Below are positions 24,024-63,443 of a DNA stretch of 64,000 nucleotides, piece after piece. Each line of letters begins with the position of its first letter. Positions within the stretch are counted from its first letter, which is position 1. Source of the stretch: a virus (taxonomy: Duplodnaviria; Caudoviricetes). Position numbers and translations under genes: made by a program. Below the pieces are notes generated by a model. The model was not told the origin of the DNA. It did no database searches and saw nothing but the letters and a program-made list of their open reading frames with translations. The stretch spans positions 67,712-131,711 of the IMG/VR virus record IMGVR_UViG_3300028887_000079, one strand, 5' to 3'.

Positions 24024-24028
24024 CTATT

Positions 24029-24101: not shown

Positions 24102-24106
24102 CGAAC

Positions 24107-24188: not shown

Positions 24189-24196
24189 CTAAACAT

Positions 24197-24268
24197 TGGA
24201 TTGTAGCTCAATGGTAGAGCGGTGCGCCGTTAACGCAAGGGTTGCAGGTTCGAGTCCTGCCTTTCCAG
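24197..24268 (+). tRNA. tRNA-Asn(GTT)
   Basis: Loop CCGTTAA (C33). Confidence 0.85.
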
Positions 24269-24272
24269 CTAT

Positions 24273-24354
24273 GGAAGCGTCCCACAACTGGTGGTGGAGC
24301 GGTCTTGAAAACCGCCGGCCGTAAGGTTTGGGGGTTCGAATCCCTCCGCTTCCG
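24273..24354 (+). tRNA. tRNA-Ser(TGA)
   Basis: GCGGT-CTTGAAA-ACCGC; variable arm. Confidence 0.9.
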
Positions 24355-24360
24355 CTACAT

Positions 24361-24447
24361 AGAGGCGTGGCCGAGTGGTCTAAGGCAGCACTTTGCTAAA
24401 GTGCCGTAGTGAAATACCTACCGCTGGTCCGAATCCAGCCGCCTCTG
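24361..24447 (+). tRNA. tRNA-Ser(GCT)
   Basis: GCACT-TTGCTAA-AGTGC; variable arm. Confidence 0.9.
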
Positions 24448-24450
24448 TCC

Positions 24451-44586: not shown

Positions 44587-46302
44587 TTAAGCGTATTCCT
44601 CAATGGCGCCGTTGAGCAATGTAAGGACCTCGCCAAGTTCGGAATCGCCCAATTCCCAAAATTCGGGCTTGAACTTGATATCCACATACCAATACGGCTT
44701 TCCGTTCTCCATCTCGGACACGATGTTGTATTCAACATAGTCGTCAAAATCGGACAGCGCCTTCTTGGCTTCCGTTTCGCAATCGCCCTTATCGCCGCAA
44801 CCCATATCAAGGTCAAAGCCCTTATCGTGCAGGTCCTTCGCGGATCTTCCGATAACGGAATTGAAGACATAAAGGCCTTTGAGGTAGTTGTCCACGCGCG
44901 AGAGTTTGCTGCGCAGCGCCAGCTTCGGGCTCAGCGCTTCGCGCCTGCCTTTTTTGTCCGCCTTCAACATTTCAGCCACAATGTCCGACAATTCGCTGAA
45001 GACATAGTTGGCGTCCTTGTCATTCAATTCCAAGATGGCGTCCTTGAATTTCAAGGCAGGGAACCACATGTCCTCGCCCTTCGGACCGCCTTCCGGGATG
45101 AGGGTCGGAGAGTAGTCAACGTAATCATCAAAGTCGGCAAACTTTGCGGCGGACTCCTTTTTGGCTTCTTCTTCGGTATTGTATCCCACAGGGATTGCCA
45201 TATGAGAATCGAAGACGTCCTCAAAATCCGGACCCCATTTTTGGAAGCCGGTATGCTTGTCGAACAGTTTGCCGAGTTCACCGATTCGGGTGGTGCGCTG
45301 CATCATCGGCTTGGCAGCATCCGGTGCTTCGCCGCATACCCCGCGATAAATGGCATCGGAAATCTTTGTGAAGGCATCCTTCGCTTCGGCGGAGTCAAGT
45401 TCAAAAATGGTTGGCTTGAACTTGATAACTGGAGACCAAACCGGTTCGCCGTGAGGTCCGCCCATTTCATCAAACTCAACATTGTAGTCAAGGTATTTCT
45501 TCAAGCCGCCGAAAAGATCGTCCGCATACTTTTGGGCATCTTTTTCCGTGGGCATCCCATAGACGGGAACCATATATGGGTCTTGAACGCTAGCGGTGTT
45601 GAAGTCCGAGAATGCCATCCCGATTTCTTTGAAGCCGCGAAGGTTTGCACAGAGGTTGTCGTATTCCTTGATCTTTTCTTTTGCCTTGGCACGCTGCGCT
45701 AATTTCGGGCTGAGACCTGCTTCGGACGTTTTCCCTTCGCCAAAGTATTCCGCTTCCGGCCAAGAGGTTTCGCTGTCGCCGTTGGACACCTTTGCGATGC
45801 CATCGATGAGGTCAATCTCGTTGCGGATGCGATCTTCAACATCGGACAACGTATCGGTGTTAGTGATGACAAAGTCAAACACGAATTGGTGGACGCGCCC
45901 GTCAGTAGCCTTGGGCCTGCCTTCGCTCTTGGTCTTGCTTTCGGCAAAGTAGCCATCTTTCAGCACATCGCCGAGATCCGCAAGGAGTCCGGTTTTAGCG
46001 TTGGTCGAAAGGCGATTGAACAGCGGCTTGAATTTGATTTGGGCAACCCTGAAGTCGGGTTCGCTTTCATCGGGCTTGATGTAGCGGCCTTCAACGAAGT
46101 CGGCAAAAGGTCCGAAGGTGTCGGCAATGTATTTGTCCCACCCGGCATCCGTATTGTCTTCGGCGCCAGTCATGAGCCCAATCCATTCGCCCGTTTCAAT
46201 GCTGTTGGCAAGGTCGGCGGTGTCGCCGCCGCTGATTTCATTCCACACCGGATTCTTTGCAAGGAGTCCGGAAAGGATGCTTTCATTTTTAGGGGTTTTC
46301 AT
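44587..46302 (-). CDS. multi-domain putative internal virion protein with 4 homologous domains
   Basis: Repeated F..F.DYV.Y...IKFKP..EL; K-x-E linkers. Confidence 0.7.
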   Translation of the reverse strand: MKTPKNESILSGLLAKNPVWNEISGGDTADLANSIETGEWIGLMTGAEDNTDAGWDKYIADTFGPFADFVEGRYIKPDESEPDFRVAQIKFKPLFNRLSTNAKTGLLADLGDVLKDGYFAESKTKSEGRPKATDGRVHQFVFDFVITNTDTLSDVEDRIRNEIDLIDGIAKVSNGDSETSWPEAEYFGEGKTSEAGLSPKLAQRAKAKEKIKEYDNLCANLRGFKEIGMAFSDFNTASVQDPYMVPVYGMPTEKDAQKYADDLFGGLKKYLDYNVEFDEMGGPHGEPVWSPVIKFKPTIFELDSAEAKDAFTKISDAIYRGVCGEAPDAAKPMMQRTTRIGELGKLFDKHTGFQKWGPDFEDVFDSHMAIPVGYNTEEEAKKESAAKFADFDDYVDYSPTLIPEGGPKGEDMWFPALKFKDAILELNDKDANYVFSELSDIVAEMLKADKKGRREALSPKLALRSKLSRVDNYLKGLYVFNSVIGRSAKDLHDKGFDLDMGCGDKGDCETEAKKALSDFDDYVEYNIVSEMENGKPYWYVDIKFKPEFWELGDSELGEVLTLLNGAIEEYA

Positions 46303-46316
46303 TTTGAGGTCTCCTT

Positions 46317-47294
46317 TTACATTTCGTGAAGCGCATCGCGAATGTGCTCAAGCAGGTCCGCTTCAATTTCGTTTCGGATGCCAGCGGCATCGTCATAGTC
46401 CGACATTGTGTTGTCTTCGATTTCATCAGTATCGGACCACCACTGAGTAAATTCGCCACCACAGAAAGTATAGCGAATTAACGGCTCGCGGTCAACGAGG
46501 AGTTCCACCGAGGAGGTGGGAATGTCCAGCCCGGGCGAATCAAAAGTGGTGATGAGACGCGTTTTGGTGCGGCGGCGATCGCGCCCATCAAAATAGGTGT
46601 CCAACATATTGTCGAGCGCCTTTTGAAAGTCGACCGCGTCCTTGTCCGCATCTTGGTTCGGGCTGATTTTATTGATAGGTTGTCCGGGGTGTCGTTTCAT
46701 ACCTTCGTTTTCTCCGTCCGGATCTTTATTCCAAGCGGATGTCACATCCAACACTTCAACGCCGGGGAAGGCTTGCGGGACCAATTCCCTGACCATATTG
46801 AGGAAAAACTTTTTCGCATTTTCATCGCTGTGGTCTTTGTAATAGGCGTCAATCAAATTGTCCATCTTCTTGGCGCCTGCTTTCAATTCCGGATGAACGT
46901 GTGCGAGCGCATCCCCGAGGACATGGGCAACGTGGATAACATCAATTCCACCAACGCGAAGAATCGGCTGCTCCTTCCCATTTAATTTGTAATGGAGGTT
47001 AAGTCGGCGCATCGAGTTGTAGTAGCGATGATACCAATAGTCGCCCGCGTGCTTGGCGAGAATATCGCCAGCCCCTTCGGACTTGCCTTTTGCAAGGTAG
47101 TCCTTGACGGCGGCAATGCAGTCCGGGCAAATGTCGGCGTTGTCCGCATAGCCTTTTTCTTTCAGGTATGCTTTCACATCCGGTTCGAGTTCATCGAGAT
47201 AGAATGTTTGGCGCCAGCCCTTGCCGCAATTCTTGCAGCGGCCAAGATGCGTTCTTTTGGCGCCTTCATTTTTGATGAGTTTGATTTTCGCCAT
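46317..47294 (-). CDS. MAKIKL-family multi-domain protein
   Basis: MAKIKLIKNEG; CxxC..CxxC domain; KSEG and ENEG linkers. Confidence 0.75.
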   Translation of the reverse strand: MAKIKLIKNEGAKRTHLGRCKNCGKGWRQTFYLDELEPDVKAYLKEKGYADNADICPDCIAAVKDYLAKGKSEGAGDILAKHAGDYWYHRYYNSMRRLNLHYKLNGKEQPILRVGGIDVIHVAHVLGDALAHVHPELKAGAKKMDNLIDAYYKDHSDENAKKFFLNMVRELVPQAFPGVEVLDVTSAWNKDPDGENEGMKRHPGQPINKISPNQDADKDAVDFQKALDNMLDTYFDGRDRRRTKTRLITTFDSPGLDIPTSSVELLVDREPLIRYTFCGGEFTQWWSDTDEIEDNTMSDYDDAAGIRNEIEADLLEHIRDALHEM

Positions 47295-47306
47295 AAGGAG
47301 CGCCCT

Positions 47307-47681
47307 CTACTTTTTGCTTTCAAGTCCGGCGCTGTTGCCCGTAATACCGGGAGCGCTGCCGCCGAGGTTCTTCAAAAAGTCTTGGCACCACACAATCGCC
47401 TTTTCGCAAGGATCAACGCTTGCGGTGAAGAAGCGACCGACCGGCCAAAACTGAATGATTTCGCCGCCGAGGAAATGTCTTCCGGCATCGTCCTTTGCGC
47501 TGCCCATCGGATGCCCATACGCCTCTTCGGATATGGCGTCCGCGAGTGCGATGGCATTTTCCGGCGTGCCGCAATCAATCATAAACGATTCTGTGTAGCG
47601 GTCGCCGCTGTTGCGGGTAACGGCACCGATTGATTCATTTTTGGGAGCGCTTTCACGGCGCTGCAATTTGATTCTAGCCAT
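47307..47681 (-). CDS. MAKIKL-family protein
   Basis: MARIKLQRRESAPKNES. Confidence 0.75.
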   Translation of the reverse strand: MARIKLQRRESAPKNESIGAVTRNSGDRYTESFMIDCGTPENAIALADAISEEAYGHPMGSAKDDAGRHFLGGEIIQFWPVGRFFTASVDPCEKAIVWCQDFLKNLGGSAPGITGNSAGLESKK

Positions 47682-47982
47682 TTGAAATCTCCGTGTTGAT
47701 AGTAAAGTCTTTGAGGTCCGATCCAAATTCGCGCAAGAGCCAACGCAGGTCGGAAGGCTTGACCCTTTCATCAAACACATAGATGTCAAGGTCATTGCCC
47801 GTTGTATTGTTGGACCAGTCCGATTGGACTTCGCCCATCATAAAGTGGTTGTCGAAGTCGTCCACAATTCCGTTCGCGTCCGCATCGTCAATGCCTTTGA
47901 GCGTAAAGACGGACATGATGTGGTAGGCTTCGTTTTTCGGCTTGGCGCCTTCATTCTTTTTTGTGAGTTTGATCTTAGCCAT
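47674..47982 (-). CDS. MAKIKL-family protein
   Basis: MAKIKLTKKNEGAKPKNEA. Confidence 0.75.
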   Translation of the reverse strand: MAKIKLTKKNEGAKPKNEAYHIMSVFTLKGIDDADANGIVDDFDNHFMMGEVQSDWSNNTTGNDLDIYVFDERVKPSDLRWLLREFGSDLKDFTINTEISNG

Positions 47983-47992
47983 CATAACCTCC

Positions 47993-48646
47993 TTATGCGC
48001 TCGCAATCATGACAAGCGCTTCTGCCGGATCCATATCTGCGAGTTCTTCGTATTCATGTGCGGCGCCGAAGAAGGTTCCGCTCATCAACGTCACCGGGTT
48101 TGCAAAACCGGAATGCAGCGCAATGACCTTGAATTGGCCGCTGCCCGGCACCTTCGTAATCTTCACAATCGCCTGAACATCGGAATCGTCCGGATGGATG
48201 ACAAAGTGGTCAATGTAATTGGGGTCGTCAACCGTGAAGCGGTCAATCGCATCCTTGTCGAATGCTTCTGCCTTCCCGGACTCATTTGCCCCAATCTCGT
48301 AAACACGGATATCGGAAAAAGTATTCCAGCCGTCAACAAGATAGGACATTGAGGTGATTTTGTCGATGCCATTATCGCGCTTGAACGTTTCAAGCGTGAT
48401 GCCATCATCAAACACTTCTCCGTAGCGGTATTCGCGATCGTTCACGCAAATGCTTTGTTCGTAGTCGTCACTTGCCGCTGCCTTGACTTCATCCCAAATT
48501 TGCTGCTCCGGCGTTTTCCCGGATTCAGGATCTACCGACCATTCTTCGATGATGGTGCCAGCATCGTCCATACGCCCACCTTTAACAGTGTATGCGCGAA
48601 TGGCGGTGCTTGCCTCATTCTTTTTTGCCAGTTTAATCTTCGCCAT
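47993..48646 (-). CDS. MAKIKL-family protein
   Basis: MAKIKLAKKNEAS. Confidence 0.75.
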   Translation of the reverse strand: MAKIKLAKKNEASTAIRAYTVKGGRMDDAGTIIEEWSVDPESGKTPEQQIWDEVKAAASDDYEQSICVNDREYRYGEVFDDGITLETFKRDNGIDKITSMSYLVDGWNTFSDIRVYEIGANESGKAEAFDKDAIDRFTVDDPNYIDHFVIHPDDSDVQAIVKITKVPGSGQFKVIALHSGFANPVTLMSGTFFGAAHEYEELADMDPAEALVMIASA

Positions 48647-48657
48647 TTGAATACCTC

Positions 48658-49815
48658 TTAATGAGAAAGTTTGCGGCCGTCCTCATCCTCCTCAACGGTG
48701 GACGAGAAATCCTTGCTCGGGTTTTTCTTTTTCTTTTTGGCTTCGGATTTCATCGAGGCGTTTTCGCCAGCCTCGGCAAGGTCGGAACCGAGTTGGGCAA
48801 TGTGGGCGCCAAGTTCAGCCCAAGTCTTACAACGGGTCTTGGATCCGCGAACGCAGGTGCGCAATTCGTATGTGAGCTGCTCAATGCCGTTGATGGCATC
48901 TTCCAGCCCTTCAACATCTTCCCATCCGTCCCAACCTTCAAAGCCGCTTTCGCGCTTCTTGGATTCCTTGAGCGAATAGCCAAGTTCACGGAGGACCTTG
49001 CCCACGCAAACCTTCTCGGTTTCGGTGGCATCGGTTTCGCCGGACTCACCATTCACGGACACCTTATAAATGTCCGGGCTTGTGTTGCCCTGCCAGTCGT
49101 CATCAACCTCAATGTATTCAACATTGACCGGAAATTCCTTTCCGTCCTTGATGCCGATGTAGGCTTCGGAGTATTCGGGGTGCTTGCTTACGTTGCGGCC
49201 TTTGAGCAATTCATAGGCGTAGTAGCAATCCTTGACCGAATACGGGTCGCTGTAAGACAAATAGTCGGTGGTGTTGGTGTTGCCGCGATCCCACTTGAGC
49301 CCTTCTTCTTTCACAAGGAACTTAATCTTGTCCGCAAGGAATTGCTTGACGCGTGCATCGGACATTCCATCCCAAAGGTTATAGACGGTGCGGCCGCTAT
49401 CGCCACCCCAATGGGCGTTGTCGATTTCAAGGTAAATTTTGTTGTCCTTGAGAATCGGGGTGGCGAACTTCCAGTAGCCACGCATACGCGGGGAGTTTTC
49501 CCAATAGCCGTCACTCATTTGTCCGAATACGGAATCAATCATGTCCTTGAATTTGGCGTCAAGGCCGAGATCGACCAAATGCGTGTTTTCGGATTCGGTT
49601 TTTGATTCAGCCGGAACCAGCGTTTTCAATTCCTTCGCGATGCGGGTCATTTCGGTTTCATCGCCCGCTTCGGCGGCATCTTCCCAATCGCCAACGAGCG
49701 CACGCACCTTCTTGCGGAAAGCCGCGTCCTTGTTGGCAAGTCCCATAATGTTATGGACATCGCCATAATCAATTTCACCCGAGATTTGGGCAATATCTTC
49801 CAGCTTCGATTCCAT
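48658..49815 (-). CDS. multi-domain putative internal virion protein
   Basis: Linkers ESKTESE, ESKKRES and MKSEA. Confidence 0.7.
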   Translation of the reverse strand: MESKLEDIAQISGEIDYGDVHNIMGLANKDAAFRKKVRALVGDWEDAAEAGDETEMTRIAKELKTLVPAESKTESENTHLVDLGLDAKFKDMIDSVFGQMSDGYWENSPRMRGYWKFATPILKDNKIYLEIDNAHWGGDSGRTVYNLWDGMSDARVKQFLADKIKFLVKEEGLKWDRGNTNTTDYLSYSDPYSVKDCYYAYELLKGRNVSKHPEYSEAYIGIKDGKEFPVNVEYIEVDDDWQGNTSPDIYKVSVNGESGETDATETEKVCVGKVLRELGYSLKESKKRESGFEGWDGWEDVEGLEDAINGIEQLTYELRTCVRGSKTRCKTWAELGAHIAQLGSDLAEAGENASMKSEAKKKKKNPSKDFSSTVEEDEDGRKLSH

Positions 49816-49829: not shown

Positions 49830-50678
49830 TTAAGCCATTGGAGAAACCATATCACGCAGCGCCCTGAAGTTGAGCGCGATCTCCGCCATAAACGACAAAG
49901 TCAGGCTGCCGTTCGCCTCGGTGCCTTGCGCAAACTTTTCAATCTTAGAAATATCGTTTTGGACCAAGTTGTCCAAGAAGACGCGGACCTTGTATTCCCA
50001 TTCAATGCCGTTGCCCATTGTCATCGCTTCATCATAGGAGGTGACGTGCATAACGATGGAATCGTATGCGGGGTCGGAATAGTAGGACTTATCGCCGGGA
50101 TGCTGCAATACCTCTTGCATAGAAACCGGCGCCCAGTGTTCGCCATCTTCATTCGGCGCCAAAGAGCCTTCCGTATAAACGTAGCCATCGGCGCTGTCCG
50201 TGATGCAAACATAGGCGGTGCTGCGATCGGTGCCATACCAAACGTGATCGCCGTAGTAATAGGTTTTATTCCATTCGGCGGATTTGTATTGGCGATACCG
50301 GCGGCCCAACATACAAACGGTTTGATATGTGATGGCGGTTGAAAGTCTGCTCCCGCTATTGCTGGAGTCGCCATCGTCCGGGGTAGGTAGTTGCGTATTG
50401 AAATCGAAGTCAACCGCCCATGCGGACGTGTCGCCCTCTTTCACTTCGACCGGAAGAATACCGGTGCACGGAATCATGCGCACAATGGGGTTGCCGGCGA
50501 TACCGGTGGTTTCGCCATCATCAACCGTAACCTCGTGGGACGTTGCCGCGATGTCATAAGGGCTTGTGCCAAGCGGCTGACCATCGAGCAATGCTGCTCC
50601 ATAAACCAAAAAAAGCTCGCCGCCCGAAAGGGCGCGTGCAATTTGAAGGGAGCCATCATTTGTAAGTATGGCGATCAT
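49830..50678 (-). CDS. putative baseplate/tail protein with CBM-like repeat
   Basis: WNKTYYYGDHVWY...YVC..W; structural context. Confidence 0.55.
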   Translation of the reverse strand: MIAILTNDGSLQIARALSGGELFLVYGAALLDGQPLGTSPYDIAATSHEVTVDDGETTGIAGNPIVRMIPCTGILPVEVKEGDTSAWAVDFDFNTQLPTPDDGDSSNSGSRLSTAITYQTVCMLGRRYRQYKSAEWNKTYYYGDHVWYGTDRSTAYVCITDSADGYVYTEGSLAPNEDGEHWAPVSMQEVLQHPGDKSYYSDPAYDSIVMHVTSYDEAMTMGNGIEWEYKVRVFLDNLVQNDISKIEKFAQGTEANGSLTLSFMAEIALNFRALRDMVSPMA

Positions 50679-50911
50679 GCCTCTTTCTCCGCAAGGCTGA
50701 GGGTTGCCCAAACGATTGTATGAAGGGCGCCTTCCGTCCTCGCGCTACCAAGCACGCGACCCGCCTTGGTCACCACCACAGCGTTTTGGTCCGCATCATA
50801 CGTGAATGCCACATCGTTTGAATACAAGGCTGCCAGCCTATCCAGCAAACCCTGAAACTCCGGGCCGGTAACATTTGCCTCGGCCTTCTTATGAACCAAT
50901 CGTATACTCAT
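50675..50911 (-). CDS. small protein with MAKIKL-like N-terminus
   Basis: MSIRLVHKKAEA. Confidence 0.65.
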   Translation of the reverse strand: MSIRLVHKKAEANVTGPEFQGLLDRLAALYSNDVAFTYDADQNAVVVTKAGRVLGSARTEGALHTIVWATLSLAEKEA

Positions 50912-50946: not shown

Positions 50947-53820
50947 CTACCCGTAGGTGAATGTAACCTTCGCGATGTCCACGGTTCTGCCTTGGCAGTA
51001 TTCCTCAATATCCGCCGCAGTGAGCGTGTATTTGCCAAGCGTAAGACCGAAGGCGCCAATCACGGTTCCGTCCGCGTCCTTCATGTATGCGGAACTCGGG
51101 AAGCAGTTTTGGAAGACAAGCGTATCGCCGTCCCAAACATAGGCGAGTTCTTCGCCGCCGTGAATCTCGGTGGTGATCTTCGCCAGCACGGACTTGAGTG
51201 TATCCACACTCCCTTCAAAGGGGTAGATGTCCATTCCAACAACCTCGGCGCGATCCCATCCGACAAATGCTTCCGTTTCGGACAACTGCCACGTTTCCTC
51301 TTCTTCGGAATCATTCAGCACATACATCCAGCGCAAGCCCAGTGCGGTGTCAATGTAAAGTCCTTTCGGGCGGTAGAGCGCCGTAACTCCGACATAGCCG
51401 TTGGCAAGCATCAAATCGCTTTCGTCCGTAACCTCCGGATCCGTGACGTTGCGGAAGTGGTCCGTTGAAGTGGACTCCTTCAATCCAAGAAGTCCGAAGG
51501 TGTGGGTGGACTGCCAATAGCGAATAAATGTGTTGTTTTCCAAATCGATAGCGCGAATGCGGAGCGGATACTGGACGCGGTCAAATTCATAAATCTTGGT
51601 TCCGCGTTCCTCATTGACGCGCGTAGGCACCAGCTCGGCCCACTCATCCGTTTCCGGATCAGCAAGGACAAATACCCCGGTCTCAATGTCCACATAATTG
51701 TGGAGCGCCCTGCTGAAGTAGCGGGTCGGGAACAACTCAATAACGTTCTTGCCGCCGGAGCGCTGCCCATCGAGAACGCTTGAGAAGATCGCCGTTTCCA
51801 TTTCGATTTTGGATTCGTCATACAAATTCATGTGGAGGCGGACCCAAACATAGATAGGAATTTCATAGGCGATAACATCGGCGACCAGCGCCGAATACGA
51901 ACCAGCCCACGCAGAAGCCTTCACCCAAGTCTTGCCATCGCCAAGATCCTTGACGGCATCCTCGGCGAGGCGGGCAAGCACGTTAAGATCCGCATCGTAG
52001 TAGCGATTGTTGAAATTCTGTGTAGGCTCAATTTCTGCGAAGCGATAGCGCGTGACCCATTCGCCGTCCGTGTATTGCTGAATGGAGCAACCGGACTTAT
52101 CTTCAGGATCATAGCGCAGGGCGCCTTCTTCCGCCTTGCCTTCGGAACCGAGCGGCTCAAGCGTTGAAATGTTGGCGACCAGCTTGCGGAGATTTTCGTG
52201 CTGCTCGTAAATGTCCTTGACCTCTTTTTCCTCATCATCGGTTTCCGACTGGCAATAGTATGCAATCGAAGGTTCCGAGAGGGAAAGGTTTTCAACATCA
52301 AGGCCGACCGCACGCATACACATGCGCAAGCCATCATAAGTGTTGCGGGTGCGCACCAGCAAGGCAAACAGCAATGCGGACCACTTGGCGCCGCATTCAT
52401 CCATAATGGATTGCGGGATGCCGACCATATGCGCATACGCCTTGCACATCTCTTCCGACACGCTCCACGTTTTTGCGATCACCGCGTTGGACGCATTGGT
52501 ATGCGGAATGACGTAGTATTCGGAGAGGAGCGGGGAATTGTCCATCTGCATGTGGTTGTAGATTTCTTCCCACGCCGGATTGAGATAATGTCCCGGCGGA
52601 TAAATCAAGGTCGATTCATCCTGAATGTCCGTATGCTTGCGCATGAACAACCGGGTGGCGTTCTCATTCACATATGAGACAATATCATCGGAATTGTAGT
52701 CCGCATAATTCTTTTTGTCGTAGTGGCCGCGATATGTGCCGAGCGAAGTGGTATGCGCGATGTCCACCCAAAACGGATAGCCTTGGCTGTCCACCGTAAC
52801 CCAAATATGTTCGATCGCGCCTTTGCGAATAGGCAGGCGCCCGCGGGGAAGAACGAATGTGTCTTCTTCCAATGCGGCAAAGCGATAGAGGTAGCCCTGG
52901 CGCCAATAGCGCGTATCATTCAGGGAAGTGCCCTCAGGCGCATTGACAATACACACATAGGAGTTTTTGCCCTGACGGCGCACGGTTCCAACGGTATAGC
53001 TGCCGGGCGTGCGCTTATGGGTTTCAATATCCATATGAGTTATTTCGCCCTGAACATCGGGGTAGACCGGCTCCTGTAATTGGAGCATACGCTGTTGATA
53101 AACAACCACGGAGCCTTGCGGGAGTTTCAAGCCGGTGATGAAGATCGTGGAATCGCTTTTTGCCTTCACGGTTTTGCCGGCGCCCCACGCCTGAATGCCC
53201 GCATACTTTGAAAGGTTGTTTGCCCTGATGGAAGGATGTTGGTTCGCCTGCATGAATCCGTAAAGGGGTTCGCCCGCGGCGTGGAGTGCTTCCATAAACT
53301 GCGGTTCCATCACGAGGCGGTTAAGCGTCTTGATGATGTAGCTATCTCGAACCCAGCCCGCGGCGGCCTTACGGAGAAGCGGGCGCTGCTGAATGGAAAC
53401 ATGCGCCTGCCAAAAGATTGAGGACATGCGCTTGTTGAGATTGATGCGGTAGTCAAGGCGGAACAACCCCGGCACTTCCGTATTGGGCCGGTTGGCTGCT
53501 ACCTTAGAAGAAATGTTGACGCGCCTGCCTGCCACTTCAAGGTAGACAAGCGGAATGTCCGGAATGAAATCGGAGAATTGGTCGATCAGGACCACTTCGG
53601 GCGGCACCTGCTCGATCTTCACATACATCGGATTGTCTTCCGGTTCGGGGCCTGGCGGATCCGGCGGAACAACTACATCCGCCGAAATAAATTGCCTCCA
53701 GTAGTTTGCATACAAGTCCGCATCCTTAACCTTCAACACGGCGGAGTCGCGCGTTTTCGAAACCACCACATATTCATGCGGCTCATACGATTGATTAAGG
53801 CGTTCATTAAGACTAGTCAT
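50947..53820 (-). CDS. large baseplate/tail structural protein
   Basis: 957 aa; CBM5/12-like aromatic repeats; baseplate operon context. Confidence 0.6.
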   Translation of the reverse strand: MTSLNERLNQSYEPHEYVVVSKTRDSAVLKVKDADLYANYWRQFISADVVVPPDPPGPEPEDNPMYVKIEQVPPEVVLIDQFSDFIPDIPLVYLEVAGRRVNISSKVAANRPNTEVPGLFRLDYRINLNKRMSSIFWQAHVSIQQRPLLRKAAAGWVRDSYIIKTLNRLVMEPQFMEALHAAGEPLYGFMQANQHPSIRANNLSKYAGIQAWGAGKTVKAKSDSTIFITGLKLPQGSVVVYQQRMLQLQEPVYPDVQGEITHMDIETHKRTPGSYTVGTVRRQGKNSYVCIVNAPEGTSLNDTRYWRQGYLYRFAALEEDTFVLPRGRLPIRKGAIEHIWVTVDSQGYPFWVDIAHTTSLGTYRGHYDKKNYADYNSDDIVSYVNENATRLFMRKHTDIQDESTLIYPPGHYLNPAWEEIYNHMQMDNSPLLSEYYVIPHTNASNAVIAKTWSVSEEMCKAYAHMVGIPQSIMDECGAKWSALLFALLVRTRNTYDGLRMCMRAVGLDVENLSLSEPSIAYYCQSETDDEEKEVKDIYEQHENLRKLVANISTLEPLGSEGKAEEGALRYDPEDKSGCSIQQYTDGEWVTRYRFAEIEPTQNFNNRYYDADLNVLARLAEDAVKDLGDGKTWVKASAWAGSYSALVADVIAYEIPIYVWVRLHMNLYDESKIEMETAIFSSVLDGQRSGGKNVIELFPTRYFSRALHNYVDIETGVFVLADPETDEWAELVPTRVNEERGTKIYEFDRVQYPLRIRAIDLENNTFIRYWQSTHTFGLLGLKESTSTDHFRNVTDPEVTDESDLMLANGYVGVTALYRPKGLYIDTALGLRWMYVLNDSEEEETWQLSETEAFVGWDRAEVVGMDIYPFEGSVDTLKSVLAKITTEIHGGEELAYVWDGDTLVFQNCFPSSAYMKDADGTVIGAFGLTLGKYTLTAADIEEYCQGRTVDIAKVTFTYG

Positions 53821-55057
53821 CCAAATCTCCTATGGGCAAGAATTCATATTCAACGGCGGTGATTTTGTTTCCGGACCAAATGAAATGACGCTTCGCCATA
53901 AACTCACGAATACACGGACCTTTAATCGAGCGGGTCGTGCCCGGATACCAGCTCCACGCCTCCTCGCTTTCGAAGGTGTAGCGGTCGGTCAGGCAAACCG
54001 GAACCGATACGCTCGAAAAGCACTTGACAGTGACAATCATTCCATCCGCTTCCGCCTTCATCGGCGGGGTGGTAGAGTTCGTGTAAGTGCTGTCGGCGGC
54101 TGCCCTCACCGGCCAAATCAGGTTCGGGGATCCGAACATGCTTGCGGTGGTGCCTACGCGCACCTTATACCAGTAAATGCCGTCAGTGTCCTGCCAGTAA
54201 GGAACGGAAGGGCGCGTTGCCGAAGGAACCCAAGCGAAAGATGGCTTCCACGGCGACCCGTGTTCGTCCATATAAATTTTGTCCGGATAGAACGGGTTGT
54301 CCACCAACGGCTTTTCATAACCATTGATAGCTTCGCCGGTAGCGGAGAGCGGGAGGAACGGAATGTAGGCGGTATACTTGGCATCCGTTTGTGGGCGCGT
54401 GGTGCCCACGCTCGCCCCATACCACGCATTGAATGATTCCACCGTAATGCGCTGTTCGCCAGTGCAAATCAATTCGGTCGTCTTGATCTCATCGATGCGG
54501 GCGCTGACAACATCTTCTACTTCCGCATCCGGCGCCAACACATCATTGAATGTGCAGTTGCCCAATGTGGTATTCGTCCCGGTGAACTCTTGGATGGTGA
54601 GTGCCAGCGCATCGATAGTCCCGGTCGAAAGGTCTTCGATTTGCGGGAAGATGATTGAAAGGACATCGCCATAATCCTCGTTATTAAGCGATATAAGCCC
54701 GTCAGTTTTGAGGGCGCCTACTTCTATGGGCGCATCCGAAATAAGGCCGTAGAACGCGCCTACGGAGGCAGAAGCGGAGCCTACGCGCCACTGCGCCGAG
54801 TGCTCGCCATTGATGAACGTGATTTTTTCACGGACATCCTTTTCCGAGAACATAAAGACATTCCAAACACACGGCACATTGAAGATGCTGCCGTCCGAAT
54901 ACTCGAATCCAACATAGCCTTCGGGAACTGTGGAATCTTCCCCCAATGAGGAGTCGTCCTGCTCCGCAAGGAGCCAGCTCCATTTCTTGAAGAATTCGTT
55001 TGCGTCATGAATTATATCATGCGCAACCTTGAGCGAGGAGTCACTATCCAAAAGCAT
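53813..55057 (-). CDS. putative tail fibre/receptor-binding protein
   Basis: Shares an N-terminal motif with the next two genes. Confidence 0.55.
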   Translation of the reverse strand: MLLDSDSSLKVAHDIIHDANEFFKKWSWLLAEQDDSSLGEDSTVPEGYVGFEYSDGSIFNVPCVWNVFMFSEKDVREKITFINGEHSAQWRVGSASASVGAFYGLISDAPIEVGALKTDGLISLNNEDYGDVLSIIFPQIEDLSTGTIDALALTIQEFTGTNTTLGNCTFNDVLAPDAEVEDVVSARIDEIKTTELICTGEQRITVESFNAWYGASVGTTRPQTDAKYTAYIPFLPLSATGEAINGYEKPLVDNPFYPDKIYMDEHGSPWKPSFAWVPSATRPSVPYWQDTDGIYWYKVRVGTTASMFGSPNLIWPVRAAADSTYTNSTTPPMKAEADGMIVTVKCFSSVSVPVCLTDRYTFESEEAWSWYPGTTRSIKGPCIREFMAKRHFIWSGNKITAVEYEFLPIGDLDD

Positions 55058-55064
55058 AGGCGCC

Positions 55065-56192
55065 TCACAGTTTATACAGCCAGTTGTGTGTTACCGATGC
55101 GCCGGGATTGGTCTCTTCTTCAAGCTCCGCCATAAAGCGGGTGCATTGATAAGTTTTGAGCGCACGCAGCGTTCGGATTTGGGCTTCTCTTCCGGTCGGA
55201 GTAGACACGTCATCAATTCGGATCGGCACAAGACCAGTGCTGCCGCTATCGCCGGTGCGTGCATAATGGATGCGCCCGATTTGATCGTCAAGCGGGAGCC
55301 AGCGGATTCGGTAGCCGCCGTCAACCTGCTCATACATCTTGTAAGGCCAAGTTGCGACAAAGTTCGGAATGAAATCGTAGGACGAGCCTAACGCGCCCAG
55401 CAATTTAAGATCGCCGCCCATCTCCGGGGTGTCCCAGTAGATGTGAATGGTATTTCCGTTAAGGGCGGAGATGATGCTTGCCGGGGTGTAAGTGCAATCG
55501 GACCAAGTCGGCTCGGAATAAATTCCCGCCGCTTCAAGGACGCTTACATTCCCGGTCCAAATGTCCCCGTTAGTCGAGGCATCAAGGTCGCTAGTTCTCA
55601 ACCCTTCAACGCCGAACTTCACCACCTGCTTGCGATACTCGATCTTGCCCATATTGAGGGTATTCGTGGTGACGCTCTTAACAGTCAGCGAACCCTGAAT
55701 GCGAGTAGTTCCGGAGATTGTGGTGGTCCCGGTAAGCGTTGCGTTCACAATCCTGCTCGCATTAGCATTCAAAGAATTGATGCTCGCGTTTTGGATGGAT
55801 CCGCCCAAAAGTGCCACGCGGCCGCTGATAGGCAAAGTTCCACTAATGCCTTCAAGTCGAGATGCCGCAACATACCCCGCAACCAAATTTGCGCGGGTTC
55901 TATTCGGCTTGATCATTTCGATCTCGCCGCTGTCATTCATACGGATGATTACGGAGTCATTTCCGTCCGTAAGCGTAAGTTGCGAAAAGATGCCGCCAAG
56001 GTAGCGGTTGATCGCTTCGCGGATGGACGGCATCGAAACCGTGTATTCAACACCATCGGCATCGCGCAAGTTAAGCGTAACCTCGCCGGGCGCTTCAATC
56101 AGTTCCCGCCACTTGGCAAGAATCGCAACAGCGTCCGCGTGTGCTTCGCGAATGAGCTTGATGCCTTCACTGAAATCGGCTGACTTTCCCAT
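55065..56192 (-). CDS. putative tail fibre protein
   Basis: DGVEYTVSMPS anchor; beta-helix-like middle. Confidence 0.6.
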   Translation of the reverse strand: MGKSADFSEGIKLIREAHADAVAILAKWRELIEAPGEVTLNLRDADGVEYTVSMPSIREAINRYLGGIFSQLTLTDGNDSVIIRMNDSGEIEMIKPNRTRANLVAGYVAASRLEGISGTLPISGRVALLGGSIQNASINSLNANASRIVNATLTGTTTISGTTRIQGSLTVKSVTTNTLNMGKIEYRKQVVKFGVEGLRTSDLDASTNGDIWTGNVSVLEAAGIYSEPTWSDCTYTPASIISALNGNTIHIYWDTPEMGGDLKLLGALGSSYDFIPNFVATWPYKMYEQVDGGYRIRWLPLDDQIGRIHYARTGDSGSTGLVPIRIDDVSTPTGREAQIRTLRALKTYQCTRFMAELEEETNPGASVTHNWLYKL

Positions 56193-56858
56193 TTATACCT
56201 CGTTCATTTTTTCAAAGCGTGCCCAGCAATTCAACCCGTAGCGGTATACATTATTCGCAACCATACACCCGTGGAAAATCGAAAGTCCATTTCCGATGAG
56301 AGTGGTGTGGGAAGACTGCCCGTATGAGGAGAACGTTAAATCAACGGTGACTCCATCCGGAACGAATATATAGAAGTCGGACATGTGGACCACATCATTA
56401 TCCGGCAGTTTAGGGCGGAACATCACTGACGGGTGCGTGCCGCTTTTAGCAAACATAAAGCGAGGGACCGGCCATTCCGTTACTGTAGAACTTCCATTAT
56501 CAAGCGCCTGCGCTACGCCTTGAATGCCATCCGCATCGTAGGTCATTTCTTTTCCGGAGCCTGCAAACGCAAGGCCGCCAGCCGTGAGAAGACCGCCACC
56601 ACCTCTTGTCGTGGTGTGCACCGAGTTGAACGTGGGGTTCGGCGGAAGCGTTCTTGTATTGATGGTCTCGATAATCTTTTGGATGTTCGGGATGGTGTAT
56701 TGAACCGGCTCGCCGCCCTGCCCTTTCAAGTTGAAGGTAACGTCCTGAGCCTTCGAGGAGAGCATATCTCCCCACTTTTGAACAAGCGTCATCACATCGG
56801 ACTGCGCGTTGATAAGAGCCTTGAGCGCCGTCTCAAAATCATAATGCATCTCAGCCAT
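56193..56858 (-). CDS. putative short tail fibre protein
   Basis: Paralogous N-terminus (QKWGDML..YTIPNIQK). Confidence 0.55.
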   Translation of the reverse strand: MAEMHYDFETALKALINAQSDVMTLVQKWGDMLSSKAQDVTFNLKGQGGEPVQYTIPNIQKIIETINTRTLPPNPTFNSVHTTTRGGGGLLTAGGLAFAGSGKEMTYDADGIQGVAQALDNGSSTVTEWPVPRFMFAKSGTHPSVMFRPKLPDNDVVHMSDFYIFVPDGVTVDLTFSSYGQSSHTTLIGNGLSIFHGCMVANNVYRYGLNCWARFEKMNEV

Positions 56859-59678: not shown

Positions 59679-60887
59679 TTACCTCAGGTCTTCAGGTTGA
59701 TAGCCAAATTGGGCAGCGATGTGCGCCAGCACTGCACGCGTAACGATCTTGCGTTCCGGGGCATTGAGCTTGTTGTCCGTAACGTCCGGATCCGTGTTCG
59801 CAATGTGGTTTCCGGCATAGGTGGAAAGGGCGGTGATTTCGTGGAGAGCCTTATCGAGTTGACCATCCTTCTGCAGTTTATCAAGAACCTTGCGCACCTC
59901 CTTCATAGTGATGCGGTTCAGGACTGCCTCGGACTTGCGTTCGTCCGCAACGCGGCGAGCGGCCTCGACTGGGCCGACCCCATCGTTCCAGCAATCATCA
60001 ATCATCGCCGGATTCATGTTAATCAGGCGGTCCGCCTCGTCCCCGGATTTGCCCATATCCTTTGTGAGGGCAGTCCAAATATCAAGGCAATAAGTGCGAA
60101 GATCCCCGCCCTCGTTGAGGCCTTCGCCCTTGCGATTGCTCCAAACGACTTCGCTTTCGGTGTGGCCGTTTTCTTTCCAAAGAGCAACGATGTGGTAGAG
60201 ACCTTTCGGGTTTTCGCCCAAAGCCTTTTCAAGGGCGGAAATAACCTCCTTGTCGGATCCGGATGCGATATCATCCAGCTCATCCCCGTCCTTGTCAATT
60301 TCATAGAGGGTATAGTAGTCAACCGTGGAGTGGCGGTCCATAGAACCGGGCTCCTTGATTTTCTTTGGAATCTTTGCTTCGGATGTGCCTTCCAGCTTGG
60401 CAATCGCATTTTCGATTGTCTTAGGCGTAAGACGGATTGTGAAGGAGCAGGTCGGGCGACCCCAAGAAGAGGATTCTCCGCCCTTATCCCACTTGCCGTC
60501 ATATTCCTTTTCAATGACCTTGCCTTTCAGCTTGACCGATTTGCCGTTGTGGCGCACAGTGAAGGAAACCGTATCGCCTTCCCAAATGCCGGATTTGTCG
60601 GAGCACACCTTTTCCTTGTGGGTATGCCAGTTGGGGTTTCTCGGATCTTCGCTGCCGCCGAAACCAATCGTGGCGCCATCCGTGATAGTGACTTCTTCGG
60701 GCACACCATCATAGCGGGCGTATACACAATTTTCGTTGCGCGTCTGCGCACGCTTGAGCGAATCCAATCCAGGGAAAACATCCCAACCGCCAAACCATTC
60801 CTCGTATTCACCATCGGGAAGTCTTCCCAACCTATCGAGGTCCTTGGCGGCATCTTCGTTCTTTTCAACAAAACTCAATCTCGGCAT
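59679..60887 (-). CDS. multi-domain putative internal virion protein
   Basis: MPRLSFVEKNED; linkers TSEA, LNEG and RKSEA. Confidence 0.7.
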   Translation of the reverse strand: MPRLSFVEKNEDAAKDLDRLGRLPDGEYEEWFGGWDVFPGLDSLKRAQTRNENCVYARYDGVPEEVTITDGATIGFGGSEDPRNPNWHTHKEKVCSDKSGIWEGDTVSFTVRHNGKSVKLKGKVIEKEYDGKWDKGGESSSWGRPTCSFTIRLTPKTIENAIAKLEGTSEAKIPKKIKEPGSMDRHSTVDYYTLYEIDKDGDELDDIASGSDKEVISALEKALGENPKGLYHIVALWKENGHTESEVVWSNRKGEGLNEGGDLRTYCLDIWTALTKDMGKSGDEADRLINMNPAMIDDCWNDGVGPVEAARRVADERKSEAVLNRITMKEVRKVLDKLQKDGQLDKALHEITALSTYAGNHIANTDPDVTDNKLNAPERKIVTRAVLAHIAAQFGYQPEDLR

Positions 60888-60922: not shown

Positions 60923-62557
60923 CTATCCGCCATACTTGGCGTAAAGGTCGCTGTAGTTCCTGATGATGCCCCAGTAGGTTTCATCATCCAGCCCGGCGTC
61001 CATTGCGGCGGCCTGCGAATCCATCAGCATGTTGTATTTGCCGCCCATTTGAACCTTGCGGTATGCGGCAAATTCGTCCGCCGTGATTTCATCGGCGCTC
61101 TTCGGATTCAACTTTTCATTCTTCTCGACAACGGAGAAGAGGGGTGTGCCGTGGATCTCGGCATCCGGGTTTTCCATAAAGAAAGCAGTCAGTGCGTTCT
61201 TCTTTGCGGTTTCTTTGTCCGGCCCAACGCCATAGGCGATTGTTTCCTTGCCGGAGTATTCGGGGTCAAATTCGTCAAGATACTGGATCTTGGCGGAGAC
61301 CTTCATTTCCCAACCGCCGTTATCCAAGGCAATTTGAAGCGTTTCGTCAAGGGATGCAAACTCGTCCGTGAAAATCTTTTCGAGTTCATCGAGATCCTTG
61401 AAGTTCAATTCCGCAACGACTTCGGAAGTGCCATCCTTGAGATTGTCCGCATAGCGGCCAATTACGCCGACATCCGGAAGAATGCGCCAAGACACGCCGC
61501 ACAATTCCCCGTCCATTGTTTTGGGGTAAACATCAATGCCGCTGTGCTTGGGGTCATCGTTGATGTCCAGCTTGAAGAGTTTAGTTCCGGCGGCGGACCA
61601 AGCAGCATTCACTGCGCCTTTGATTTCGGAGTTGTTCATAGCATCCTCTTTGATGGAGGCGCCTGCCGTAATCCTCTTTTGAAGACTGCGGAACGCGCCG
61701 GTAAGCAGTTGTTCAAGATCTTTGAGCGATTCCACGCCCATGCACGAAGTAGCGTTCTTCGCATTGTGGGTCGGGTAGTGGTCGACTTCGATTTTCTTCA
61801 GGCTATTGAGGACCGGATGCGGGAAATTGATTTCCCACTTATCGTCAACCTCATCGTGCCCGTTCAAGCCCTTGGTGTAGATAATGACGTGGCCGCCCAA
61901 GCGGACAATGTCCAATTCAAAATCCTTGGCGCCACTTGCATTCCAAGCAGCGCGTGCGGTGTTTTGAATATCTCGCGGGGTCAAGGGTTCAAGCGATGCC
62001 TCGTTCTTGTTTTCAAATTTCTCGATAGCCATAACTTCAAGATCCTCAACTTCGGCGCCGATGCTGTCGGCGAAGTTTTGTTTCATAGCAGCGCTGAAAC
62101 TTTCAGGGCCGGAACCTTCATACGCATCTTCGATATGCGTGGTCCAGTCACCAGCCTTGTTTTTGCAATAGGTGGTATCGTTTGGGCCTTTATGGGCAAG
62201 CACATAGGTCATTTCGGCTTCCCGTGTTTCGGGCTTGCGGCCGAGATCGTCCATAATCCATTTGGCAACCGCCGTGACGGACGCTTCGCCCTTCGTGGCA
62301 TCGCCAGTAATGCTCTTGCGGCGAACGCCGGGGAAAAAGATCCGCCAAGTGTCGCCGTCAAGGACTATATTGTATTTCGGCCGAGAATCGCGTTCTAAGG
62401 CGATTTCGAGGCCCGGCAATGTATTTGCCTGCCCCACATAAAAATCGGGCTTAGAACGCACGGAAACCGCCAAATCCGGCGCCATACGCTGGATGAGGCG
62501 TTTCAATTCTTCTACCAAGTCGATTTCTTGGACCGAACCTTCCCGTTTACTTCCCAT
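60923..62557 (-). CDS. multi-domain putative internal virion protein
   Basis: MGSKREG; linkers TREA, KNEA, IKED and EKNEK; duplicated AAW..G...F.LDI domain. Confidence 0.7.
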   Translation of the reverse strand: MGSKREGSVQEIDLVEELKRLIQRMAPDLAVSVRSKPDFYVGQANTLPGLEIALERDSRPKYNIVLDGDTWRIFFPGVRRKSITGDATKGEASVTAVAKWIMDDLGRKPETREAEMTYVLAHKGPNDTTYCKNKAGDWTTHIEDAYEGSGPESFSAAMKQNFADSIGAEVEDLEVMAIEKFENKNEASLEPLTPRDIQNTARAAWNASGAKDFELDIVRLGGHVIIYTKGLNGHDEVDDKWEINFPHPVLNSLKKIEVDHYPTHNAKNATSCMGVESLKDLEQLLTGAFRSLQKRITAGASIKEDAMNNSEIKGAVNAAWSAAGTKLFKLDINDDPKHSGIDVYPKTMDGELCGVSWRILPDVGVIGRYADNLKDGTSEVVAELNFKDLDELEKIFTDEFASLDETLQIALDNGGWEMKVSAKIQYLDEFDPEYSGKETIAYGVGPDKETAKKNALTAFFMENPDAEIHGTPLFSVVEKNEKLNPKSADEITADEFAAYRKVQMGGKYNMLMDSQAAAMDAGLDDETYWGIIRNYSDLYAKYGG

Positions 62558-62567: not shown

Positions 62568-63443
62568 TTAGATGTCCGTCATGCCCTGCTTGGCAACATC
62601 CAAACCGGCATTGTTTCCGGTGTCGGTCTGCGGCATCACAGCACGGCTCGGGGCGTTCTTAATCGGCTTGTTTGAGGTAGCCATAATGCCCGCGTTACCC
62701 AAGATGGAGTTGCGCACCGCATTCTTGCTGACTGGGGAGTTGTAGTAGTCCTGATAAACATCGACCATCTTGTCCGTGATGTTCTTGTCAAGGTAATCCT
62801 TGAGTTTGTCATCGCCGTCTTTCAGCCAGTCGAAAATGTTCATGCCCGGTTCAACCTTGCTGGACGGAACCTTACCGCCGTTGGCAACCGCGATAGCGCC
62901 CTGGAAGTCACGGAGCATATCCGCCGGATCCTGAGGATTATCGCCAGCCGAATTCTTGAACACGATGGAATTGATCTTGCAGTTCGGGTTGAGCAGGAAT
63001 ACCTGCGACCAGCGGTGGTGGCCGTCAACGATGTAATGCGTGCCGTTGTAGTCATAGACCACGAGCGGGAGGTTGATGGTGACCGGGCCGTCGGCAAGAA
63101 TCTTCTTCTGCTGTTCGGGGTCTTTGGGGTTAACCTGATAGGACAGCGATTTGCCCACATCGATTTCGTTCTGTGTGGGGTGCAGGTCCTTGGCGGCGAT
63201 AGGTTCTTCGGTCCATTTCATCTTGTCAGCGAGAGTGCCGTTGCCGAAACCAAGTTCGAGCAGGTCAAGCTGATCCGGCGTCAAGTTGTTGAGCGCGTTG
63301 ACGAGATCCGGCATATCCTTTTGATTTTTGAGTGTTTGGACTTCTTTGTCGAATTGCGGCTTCTGTGCGGAGGCATCAGGCTGCTGACTCACCTCTTCTT
63401 CTTCGTTCCGCTTTTTCGCTTCGAATCTTTTTTTGATGAACAT
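62568..63443 (-). CDS. ParB/Srx-like domain protein
   Basis: DLHPTQNEID and YIVDGHHRW motifs; N-terminus KKRNE. Confidence 0.75.
   Translation of the reverse strand: MFIKKRFEAKKRNEEEEVSQQPDASAQKPQFDKEVQTLKNQKDMPDLVNALNNLTPDQLDLLELGFGNGTLADKMKWTEEPIAAKDLHPTQNEIDVGKSLSYQVNPKDPEQQKKILADGPVTINLPLVVYDYNGTHYIVDGHHRWSQVFLLNPNCKINSIVFKNSAGDNPQDPADMLRDFQGAIAVANGGKVPSSKVEPGMNIFDWLKDGDDKLKDYLDKNITDKMVDVYQDYYNSPVSKNAVRNSILGNAGIMATSNKPIKNAPSRAVMPQTDTGNNAGLDVAKQGMTDI

Follow-up and report, generated by a model that had tools for sequence, protein, structure and literature searches.

The tailed phage represented by IMG/VR record IMGVR_UViG_3300028887_000079 encodes a set of mostly unrelated proteins that begin with a common short leader, typically ending in Lys-Asn-Glu before a small residue. 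We analysed a window of 64,000 nucleotides (bases 67,712-131,711 of this single 131,711-bp record, which has 52% G+C and is rated complete by CheckV). Within it, the initial annotation had proposed that a shared N-terminal signal, noted at positions 44587-49815, targets head-packaged, injected effectors to the capsid. Our analysis indicates that the element is probably a T4-like capsid-targeting and processing leader, accompanied by cargo polyproteins whose modules are joined by sites for the prohead protease. Comparisons drew on IMG/VR loci around homologues (31 at protease homologues and 4 further contigs found through the leader DNA pattern) and on database homologues of two cargo proteins. 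Positions refer to the window, the leader and multi-module genes given for it all lie on the minus strand, and ↓ marks the inferred cut.

Among the 179 genes called on the whole record with a codon-usage model trained on the same record, about 18 encode full leaders and 4 encode short forms. Class A (n = 13) reads Met, 1-2 residues, Ile/Leu, a basic or polar residue, Leu/Phe, 1-3 residues, (Lys)-Lys-Asn-Glu and then Ala/Gly/Ser/Asp, typically M-x-x-I-K-L-x-(K)-K-N-E, and a scaffold-like protein has a leader related to this class. Class B (n = 4) reads Met, aromatic/His, Ile, Lys, Lys, x, aromatic, Glu, x, Lys, Lys, x, Asn, Glu. The short forms (n = 4) are stubs of 5-7 residues that retain the K-x-E site alone. 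In the span 44587-49815, full leaders begin the four proteins at 46317-48646, a short form begins 44587-46302, and 48658-49815 is leaderless. All 12 N-termini singled out by the initial annotation are encoded on the minus strand, each starting where it had been placed. Upstream of most of these starts lie a Shine-Dalgarno-like GGAG/GAGG, at a distance of 5-10 nt, and an in-frame stop only a few codons away; 50911 lacks a clear Shine-Dalgarno sequence. The class-A pattern matches 13 of 179 N-termini versus 2 of 819 internal Met positions, and shuffling the first 25 residues yields a mean of 0.28 matches and a maximum of 3 in 1000 shuffles. Similarly, K-N-E-[AGSD] occurs 17 times proteome-wide against 2.5 expected, with 12 occurrences in the first 25 residues against 0.28 expected. 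Nor is the motif equally common in enzymes: FolE, QueC and the tail sheath, checked among enzymes and tail proteins, carry no leader, and the capsid protein has none either. The codons of the leader vary synonymously, with three Ala, both Lys, three Ile and five Leu codons in use. Because synonymous codons differ this freely, selection acts on the leader peptide rather than on DNA or mRNA, and a DNA-level repeat was rejected on the same grounds. At 18280-18660 (minus strand), an upstream ATG at 18660 with GGAG 9-12 nt upstream would give a class-A-like leader ending in K-G-E↓S; the gene call starts 12 codons downstream, and this is a borderline extra member among non-structural genes.

The proteins behind the leader had been described as unrelated, which is mostly the case. 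An all-versus-all BLAST after trimming 20 residues recovered one paralogous pair (1512-2318 and 2722-3588, 32% identity over 75 residues) and one short C-terminal piece. Paralogy was rejected as the cause of the shared leader because the bodies mostly have no mutual similarity. The short piece is an 18-residue C-terminal stretch, 78% identical between a class-B protein (L001:19073-19486, minus strand) and a class-A protein (L003:16852-17442, plus strand) that are encoded outside the window and are otherwise unrelated. Pfam and PHROG scans of all leader proteins returned no family, with the sole exception of a sub-threshold ParBc_2 match in 62568-63443. The leaders are 10-15 residues long and basic, with a mean net charge of +1.8 over the first 12 residues versus +0.3 in other proteins, and contain two or three hydrophobic residues alternating with Lys. 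A secretion signal was rejected, as none of the leaders has the hydrophobic core of ~7-15 residues after a basic N-region that characterises Sec, Tat and lipoprotein signals. The mature parts are acidic, with a median net charge of -4.5 versus -0.9 per 100 residues in other proteins (Mann-Whitney p = 1.6e-4) and 19 of 22 leader proteins below -3.5. Acidic mature parts of this kind bring to mind DNA-mimic anti-restriction proteins.

The gp21-like protease that the initial annotation had placed at 1-653 is supported by its PHROG match, by profile alignment with aligned His and Ser residues and by its fold. The window contains the N-terminal 217 of its 338 codons, the gene starting at 653 on the minus strand and exiting the left end of the window (full gene L004:13348-14364, minus strand). 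The protein matches PHROG 207 (head maturation protease) with an E-value of 4e-19, and its family profile aligns to T4 gp21 in hhalign with a probability of 84.6% and an E-value of 7e-6. In this alignment His88 and Ser142, which are invariant or nearly so in 16 homologues, fall on T4 His85 and Ser140. The family profile found no match among PDB sequences and a fold search was required: for the AlphaFold model (predicted local distance difference test score, pLDDT, 73), the only significant PDB matches are three chains of 5JBL (T4 gp21), with an E-value of ~4e-6, a template modelling score of 0.70 and a root-mean-square deviation of 2.4 Å. In addition, 6 of the 16 homologues (~50% identity) match Pfam PF03420 (Peptidase_S77) at E <= 0.01, the best at 1.1e-5. 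Alignment and model point to a T4 gp21-type prohead protease with a predicted herpesvirus-assemblin-like fold and catalytic His and Ser residues. Proteases of the gp21 family cleave after Glu, at L/I-x-E in T4 (PMC9026906), and phiKZ-type head proteases recognise A/S/G-x-E (PMC10052503).

The end of the leader resembles such a site. When the 22 leaders are aligned on the inferred cut, P1 is Glu in all 22, P2 is Asn in 15, P3 is Lys in 13 and P4 is Lys in 10, and P1' is Ala, Gly or Ser in 18. In the T4 genome (NC_000866), IPII and IPIII read I-A-E↓A after 10 residues, IPI reads I-T-E↓A after 19, gp24 reads L-R-E↓S after 10 and gp23 reads L-T-E↓A at residue 65. Two head proteins encoded just left of the window also carry candidate sites. 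The 150-residue, highly charged scaffold-like protein, encoded at L004:12825-13277 (minus strand) beside the capsid protein and protease genes, is very acidic past its basic N-terminus and has the highest candidate-site density in the proteome (7 in 150 residues), as expected because such a protein must be degraded. The major capsid protein (26 bits on Pfam Gp23, cut-off 24.4, and also PHROG 138) contains K-[RK]-Y-E↓[SA] at residues 63-67, kept down to 57% identity and near the T4 gp23 cut at 65. As hhalign of the capsid family against T4 gp23 aligned the C-terminal half alone, the presumed capsid cut parallels that of T4 by position only and is not anchored on it. A tail sheath gene lies further left of the window. 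The matches of its capsid protein, prohead protease and sheath make the phage a myovirus with a distantly T4-like head module. Its closest cultured capsid proteins (Rhizobium RHph_TM30 group and Vibrio Va2) are 30-35% identical over the C-terminal half alone. Three leader genes lie just upstream of the protease, scaffold-like and capsid genes.

Comparison with related phages reveals that modules are exchanged at the Glu↓small site. The body of the 268-residue class-A protein at 1512-2318 (leader end T-N-E↓A) corresponds to residues ~247-503 of a 506-residue protein in a phage of the clade at 69% protease identity (L011:6406-7926), where it stands behind an internal A-N-E↓A. The body of the 131-residue class-A protein at 2318-2713 (leader end V-R-E↓G) follows an internal A-N-E↓G at residue ~134 in the closest relative (L010:7614-8372), and the protein has both a class-B orthologue (L011:6013-6402) and a leaderless paralogue (L010:6373-6726). 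One of the class-B proteins has an orthologue of 46% identity that bears a class-A leader. For a leader protein encoded outside the window, the body stands behind K-N-E↓D in this phage, and in two relatives it stands behind an internal K-M-E↓A at residue 155. The 288-residue class-A protein at 2722-3588, whose first ~75 residues are paralogous to 1512-2318, has a leader ending in K-S-E↓A.

The span 44587-49815 shows the same behaviour. The 325-residue class-A protein at 46317-47294 is composed of a leader ending in K-N-E↓G, a zinc-ribbon module of ~63 residues ending in K-S-E↓G and a C-terminal module. In P0094-P0105 the zinc ribbon is preceded by any of four different leaders, by a leader and a further module, or by an internal P-K-H-E↓A joint, and it is followed by any of four different modules; its flanks are always x-x-E followed by Ala/Gly. 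The neighbouring 124-residue class-A protein at 47307-47681 has two sites (R-R-E↓S and K-N-E↓S) and stops mid-linker, its C-terminus lying within a linker-like L-E-S-K-K, and the next gene opens with a fresh leader. In P0093 an in-frame fusion via L-E-S-I-K-N-E↓G links the body of this protein with the C-terminal module of 46317-47294. The 571-residue multi-module protein at 44587-46302 has a short leader of 7 residues ending in K-N-E↓S and internal (E-S-)K-x-x-E↓small linkers. P0103, in which a leader, the zinc ribbon and the module family of 44587-46302 are joined via E-S-K-T-N-E↓D, can be aligned to this protein in several registers; the internal repeats escaped a self-BLAST of 44587-46302 and are visible only via the multiple alignments of a relative. 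The 102-residue class-A protein at 47674-47982 has two sites (K-N-E↓G and K-N-E↓A). For the 217-residue class-A protein at 47993-48646 (leader end K-N-E↓A), a homologue (L006:5640-6293) carries the leader and a 35-residue Cys-rich insert ahead of the same body; the ESM Atlas gave nothing usable for this protein. The 385-residue multi-module protein at 48658-49815 has no leader and contains internal E-S-K-x-x-E↓S linkers; its first module stands behind a class-A leader in P0095 and P0100, and its other modules recur in P0094-P0105. Its C-terminus (48658-48740) carries a tail of ~21 residues (Asn-Pro-Ser-Lys-Asp-Phe ... Ser-His) that is 90% conserved in P0094, P0095 and P0105, whose other modules differ. 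As it lies directly behind K-S-E↓A, this tail could serve as an additional signal at the C-terminus or be a peptide that is set free. Among 50,697 GenBank phage records there was no DNA or protein match to 44587-49815 or 46317-47294.

Further multi-module proteins are encoded near the right end of the window. The 402-residue protein at 59679-60887 has a class-A-like leader ending in K-N-E↓D, and relatives encode its N-terminal part and its last 86 residues in two genes of their own, each with a leader (L008:1346-2107 and L019:2002-2277). The 544-residue protein at 60923-62557 has a short leader of 6 residues ending in K-R-E↓G and an internal N-K-N-E↓A site, and the module at its residues 40-105 is also present in P0094-P0105. 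The fixed boundary, the shuffled modules, the swapped leader classes and the tracking of the protease clade described below argue, at the sequence level, that the Glu↓small site is a functional module boundary under selection and that the leader is a portable unit tied to the head-assembly machinery of the phage.

The 291-residue class-B protein at 62568-63443 is the sole cargo with a recognisable fold. Its 14-residue leader ends in R-N-E and is followed by an acidic spacer and a domain predicted to adopt a ParB/sulfiredoxin (ParB/Srx) fold. The AlphaFold2 model has a pLDDT of 89.9, with the first 20 residues near 50, and its best PDB matches are ParB N-domains (including Noc), Atu1540 and sulfiredoxin. 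The Pfam ParBc_2 match of 21.5 bits falls under the cut-off of 23.6, and D140-G-H-H-R144 is invariant in 30 homologues. Homology, extending over 660 homologue clusters, begins past residue ~25, and many homologues are leaderless or embedded in large multidomain proteins. Domains of the ParB/Srx superfamily have precedents in DdrB, a P1 protein packaged in the head, and among polyvalent proteins (PMC5512222). In one relative of this protein (P0109, 460 residues), a whole variant leader (Met-Lys-Ile-Thr-Val-Lys-Glu ... His-Glu↓Thr) is internal at residue ~193, just before the ParB/Srx module, and the sequence looks as if two genes had been fused through loss of a stop codon.

The leader is confined to the clade, so far without a cultured member, in which the protease is at least about 48% identical. 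Wherever a related locus has 20 or more called genes and a protease at least 69% identical (loci at 87% and 69%), leaders are present, and variant leaders are found in most loci at ~48-52% protease identity, a clade of 213-220-kb phages. These variants are of the M-x-K-x-K-I-K-V-H-E↓A/S or the Cys-Ser-Met-Gln-Lys-Lys-Lys-Glu↓Ser type and occur in up to 6 of 21 genes per locus. In the next clade, with proteases of ~450 residues, there are 0 leaders among 166 genes in seven loci, and the cultured distant relatives RHph_TM30 (Rhizobium) and Va2 (Vibrio) have no leader around their head genes, the sole region read. The leader DNA pattern occurs in only four other viral contigs, all of them relatives with several protein-level leaders. 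In bacterial genomes it has at least 120 matches, and at least 78 of 80 translated loci encode one orthologue of ~200 residues, found in Treponema, Verrucomicrobiota, Lentisphaeria and others (L047-L126), whose N-terminus is Met-Ala-Lys-Ile-Lys-Leu-Thr-Lys-Asn-Glu followed by Leu/Gln. From its sequence we take this protein to be V-type ATPase subunit D. Its identity with the leader is probably a coincidence; mimicry or a hint at the host is possible, Treponema being common in the rumen. No prophage relatives were found among the 80 translated bacterial loci, and we found no description in the literature of such a leader outside the T-even group.

Among known systems, the T4 capsid-targeting sequence (CTS) carried by IPI, IPII, IPIII and Alt and removed by gp21 is the closest parallel (Mullaney and Black 1996; reviewed in PMC9026906 and PMC3012670). 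In both cases a short N-terminal propeptide (10-19 residues in T4, 10-15 here) is found on otherwise unrelated proteins, its terminal Glu preceding Ala/Ser/Gly, and the phage encodes a protease of the gp21 family. The leader would also share the two-part layout of the CTS, in which hydrophobic positions for targeting come first and those for processing last. The client set also differs between related phages in both. In contrast to T4, there are ~20 clients here (12% of genes) instead of 4, two leader classes, a site that doubles as an internal joint and Lys/Thr/His instead of Leu/Ile at P3. The phage is only distantly T4-like, its capsid protein barely reaching the Pfam Gp23 cut-off. Since its sequence is unrelated to the T4 CTS, we regard the leader as a likely analogue in a distant lineage rather than a homologue or member of the T4 CTS family. 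By analogy it would be closest in function to the T4 system, to which it would add a larger client set, two leader classes and protease-jointed polyproteins.

In phiKZ, 201phi2-1 and SPN3US (gp175/gp245 proteases), a diverged gp21-type protease cuts many head-internal proteins after Glu (PMC10052503, PMC5694885). Some propeptides there are cut at several sites, and ejection of the packaged proteins into the host has been presumed. The motif, however, is A/S/G-x-E, and the propeptides are mostly long (111-254 residues) without a common leader, whereas a short common leader is the defining feature here. About 80% of SPN3US head proteins are uncut (PMC10052503). Polyvalent proteins (Iyer, Burroughs, Anand, de Souza, Aravind 2017; PMC5512222) also string together small domains without mutual relationship in a single chain, have genes close to those of the virion and include ParB/Srx-superfamily domains among their modules. 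They contain 2-15 unrelated domains and a built-in or associated releasing peptidase, and have been proposed to be packaged, delivered with the DNA and released by proteolysis (PMC5512222). Unlike the proteins described here, they usually have their own zincin-like peptidase and recognisable enzyme domains. Pfam and PHROG searches detected no zincin-like or other built-in peptidase in the multi-module proteins of this phage; instead, the joints carry the motif of the head protease, which would effect release, the modules are mostly orphans and the chains start with a shared leader. Encapsulins, nanocompartments of the HK97 fold, also use a short portable terminal peptide to direct unrelated cargo into a shell. 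Unlike the leader, encapsulin cargo-loading peptides usually sit at the C-terminus, stay in place without proteolytic removal and contact the shell protein itself; the two are not known to be homologous.

We propose that the leader is a two-part N-terminal propeptide that would act like the T4 CTS. The first half, basic and amphipathic with conserved hydrophobics at positions 4 and 6 (M-x-K-I-K-L or M-aromatic-I-K-K-x-aromatic), would bind the core of the prohead during assembly, with the very acidic scaffold as a plausible partner, and would carry the attached protein into the prohead. Electrostatic and hydrophobic docking of leaders on the core is plausible because the leaders are basic and the scaffold-like protein is very acidic, although this is pure inference. 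The second half, (K)-K-N-E followed by a small residue, would be the site for the gp21-type serine protease, so that the leader is removed during head maturation. The same site, often within an E-S-K-x-x-E linker, joins modules, and one leader could import a chain that is later cut into domains. The hydrophobics at positions 4 and 6 are conserved and specific to the N-terminus, and the K-N-E site is shared with internal linkers. In the T4 CTS, residues 4 and 7 are the positions for targeting, residues 8 and 10 those for processing (PMC9026906), and by analogy the leader would have the same two-part layout. We infer all of these steps, namely binding to the core, cleavage, presence in the virion and delivery to the host. 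The initial interpretation holds for a short, portable, N-terminal leader that ends in Glu↓small like the T4 CTS and for a boundary that delimits exchangeable modules; as for the term effector, only the ParB/Srx cargo has a recognisable fold. For the mature modules, most of them acidic, a role as early effectors that are injected is conceivable, and we put it at somewhat below an even chance.

Several observations weigh against this proposal. The leader shares only Met1 and the terminal Glu with T4 leaders (NC_000866) and is basic (+2 to +4), and those of T4 are slightly acidic. P3 is Lys here versus Leu/Ile in T4 and Ala/Ser/Gly in phiKZ-type systems, a Lys at P3 has no precedent among characterised gp21-type proteases, and the leader would fit the specificity of the protease by analogy only. 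The protease itself has no Pfam S77 match, neither with its own sequence, which does not reach the PF03420 gathering threshold, nor in the genome scan, so its S77 membership rests on transitive and structural evidence. Acidic cargo beside DNA is unlike what would be expected by analogy with the basic IPII and IPIII of T4. The ~21-residue tail of 48658-49815 directly follows K-S-E↓A, and the C-terminal piece shared by the two leader proteins outside the window is a similar misfit. A synteny argument had used 5416-6909 as the portal gene; this assignment was left unconfirmed (T4 gp20 probability 1.6%, weak PDB match). Finally, 44587-46302, 48658-49815 and 60923-62557 have no hydrophobic half, although relatives have it on the first two. 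As these are three of the largest multi-module proteins, the hydrophobic half is not the sole route into the particle.

The properties of the scaffold-like protein bear on a different role for the leader proteins. Its related leader and its dense sites, together with mature parts that are acidic like the scaffold, several proteins with many candidate sites and three leader genes just upstream of the protease gene, in a position comparable to T4 gp67 and gp68, would also be found if leader and linkers marked components of the scaffolding core, that is acidic filler or size-determining proteins that are chopped and mostly gone before DNA packaging, and not effectors. T4 gp22, gp67 and gp68 are core proteins with such a fate, cut up by the protease and for the most part lost ahead of DNA packaging. 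We consider this unlikely here, as many modules are predicted to be folded domains, including one confident ParB/Srx fold and one zinc ribbon, turnover and recombination alter the repertoire even among close relatives, as would be expected for conflict genes and not for structural filler, and ~20 different core proteins would lack precedent.

Another possibility is that the Glu↓small sites are genuine and the N-terminal half has no part in targeting, being an inhibitory or solubilising pro-sequence or a linker remnant of gene fission, with entry through C-terminal tails or module contacts. Conservation of positions 4 and 6 across unrelated proteins and clades, with clade-specific variants, would be unexpected for linker remnants, and the hydrophobic half is found essentially at N-termini only (2 of 819 internal Met positions). 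These observations make cleavage without targeting improbable, even though three large multi-module proteins have no hydrophobic half, the short forms resemble linkers with an added start codon, a conserved C-terminal tail follows the site in 48658-49815 and relatives, and the C-terminus of T4 Alt is likewise processed (PMC9026906).

The leader could also be a tag for a reader outside the capsid, such as a modifying enzyme like those of ribosomally synthesised and post-translationally modified peptides (RiPPs), a host AAA+ protease for which the leader would be an N-terminal degron timing removal, or an export route. Short basic-hydrophobic N-termini can indeed act as ClpX-type signals. However, we saw no SPASM or RiPP-type maturase, the sole radical-S-adenosylmethionine-like gene recognised by sequence motifs being a QueE-like gene of the 7-deazaguanine pathway outside the window, and no leader has a hydrophobic core long enough for Sec or Tat. 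The Glu↓small boundary is also internal between modules, which fits an endoprotease and not a terminal tag reader, and the leader co-varies with the prohead protease clade, so that we regard such a tag as very unlikely. A nucleic-acid or translation feature without a peptide role, either an A-rich start region favouring initiation or a recombination linker that moves cassettes, would agree with leaders that are Lys/Asn-rich and hence A-rich after ATG and with modules that recombine at these points, but is next to excluded by freely varying synonymous codons, by the conservation of the hydrophobic positions and the Glu↓small pair and by the restriction of the DNA pattern to 4 other viral contigs, each with several protein-level leaders.

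Other features of the window lie beside or between these genes. A conserved head-module protein of 365 residues at 4050-5147 (minus strand) has an A-K-N-E↓A site at residue 38 and, judged by this motif, may be a further protease substrate. The 78-residue class-A protein at 50675-50911 has a leader ending in K-A-E↓A and a less certain start codon. A GTP cyclohydrolase I gene (FolE; PHROG 2197, E-value 3e-51) at 735-1424 (minus strand) sits between the leader genes and the prohead protease, and a QueC-like gene at 9158-9865 (minus strand) lies 8 kb from FolE, the 7-deazaguanine pathway genes being interspersed among head genes. ARAGORN identified a tmRNA, a tRNA-Met, two odd tRNA-like genes and a six-tRNA cluster at 11400-15000 and 23950-24450. 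Three adjacent genes at 53813-56858 (minus strand; 414, 375 and 221 residues) are alike over the N-terminal ~40 residues, a helix followed by a conserved Lys-Trp motif, and differ in their bodies. Their sequences suggest a family of tail-fibre or baseplate adaptors whose distal parts are exchangeable.

In a wider and rather doubtful picture, myoviruses of the gut and rumen that form one uncultured clade, their genomes ranging from 128 to about 220 kb, would possess a plug-and-play capsid cargo system unlike that of T4, in which the basic amphipathic leader and the E-S-K-x-x-E joints together allow any small domain to be added, fused, split or re-leadered while packaging is retained, and more than one tenth of the genes would encode shuffling, acidic, injected anti-host or anti-defence modules freed by the head protease. 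The two leader classes may address two sites on the prohead core. If the proposed function of the leader is correct, the proteins acting in the first seconds of infection would be predictable from sequence in uncultured phages by listing leaders and payloads, and each genome would yield ~20 orphan proteins as candidates for roles in anti-defence or host takeover. A second, orthogonal set of tag and linker would then be available for engineered protein delivery by phage particles. A portable capsid address would then have arisen, or diverged past recognition, in a distant lineage with different chemistry (basic, with Lys at P3) and polyprotein joints, which bears on how phage heads recruit their cargo.

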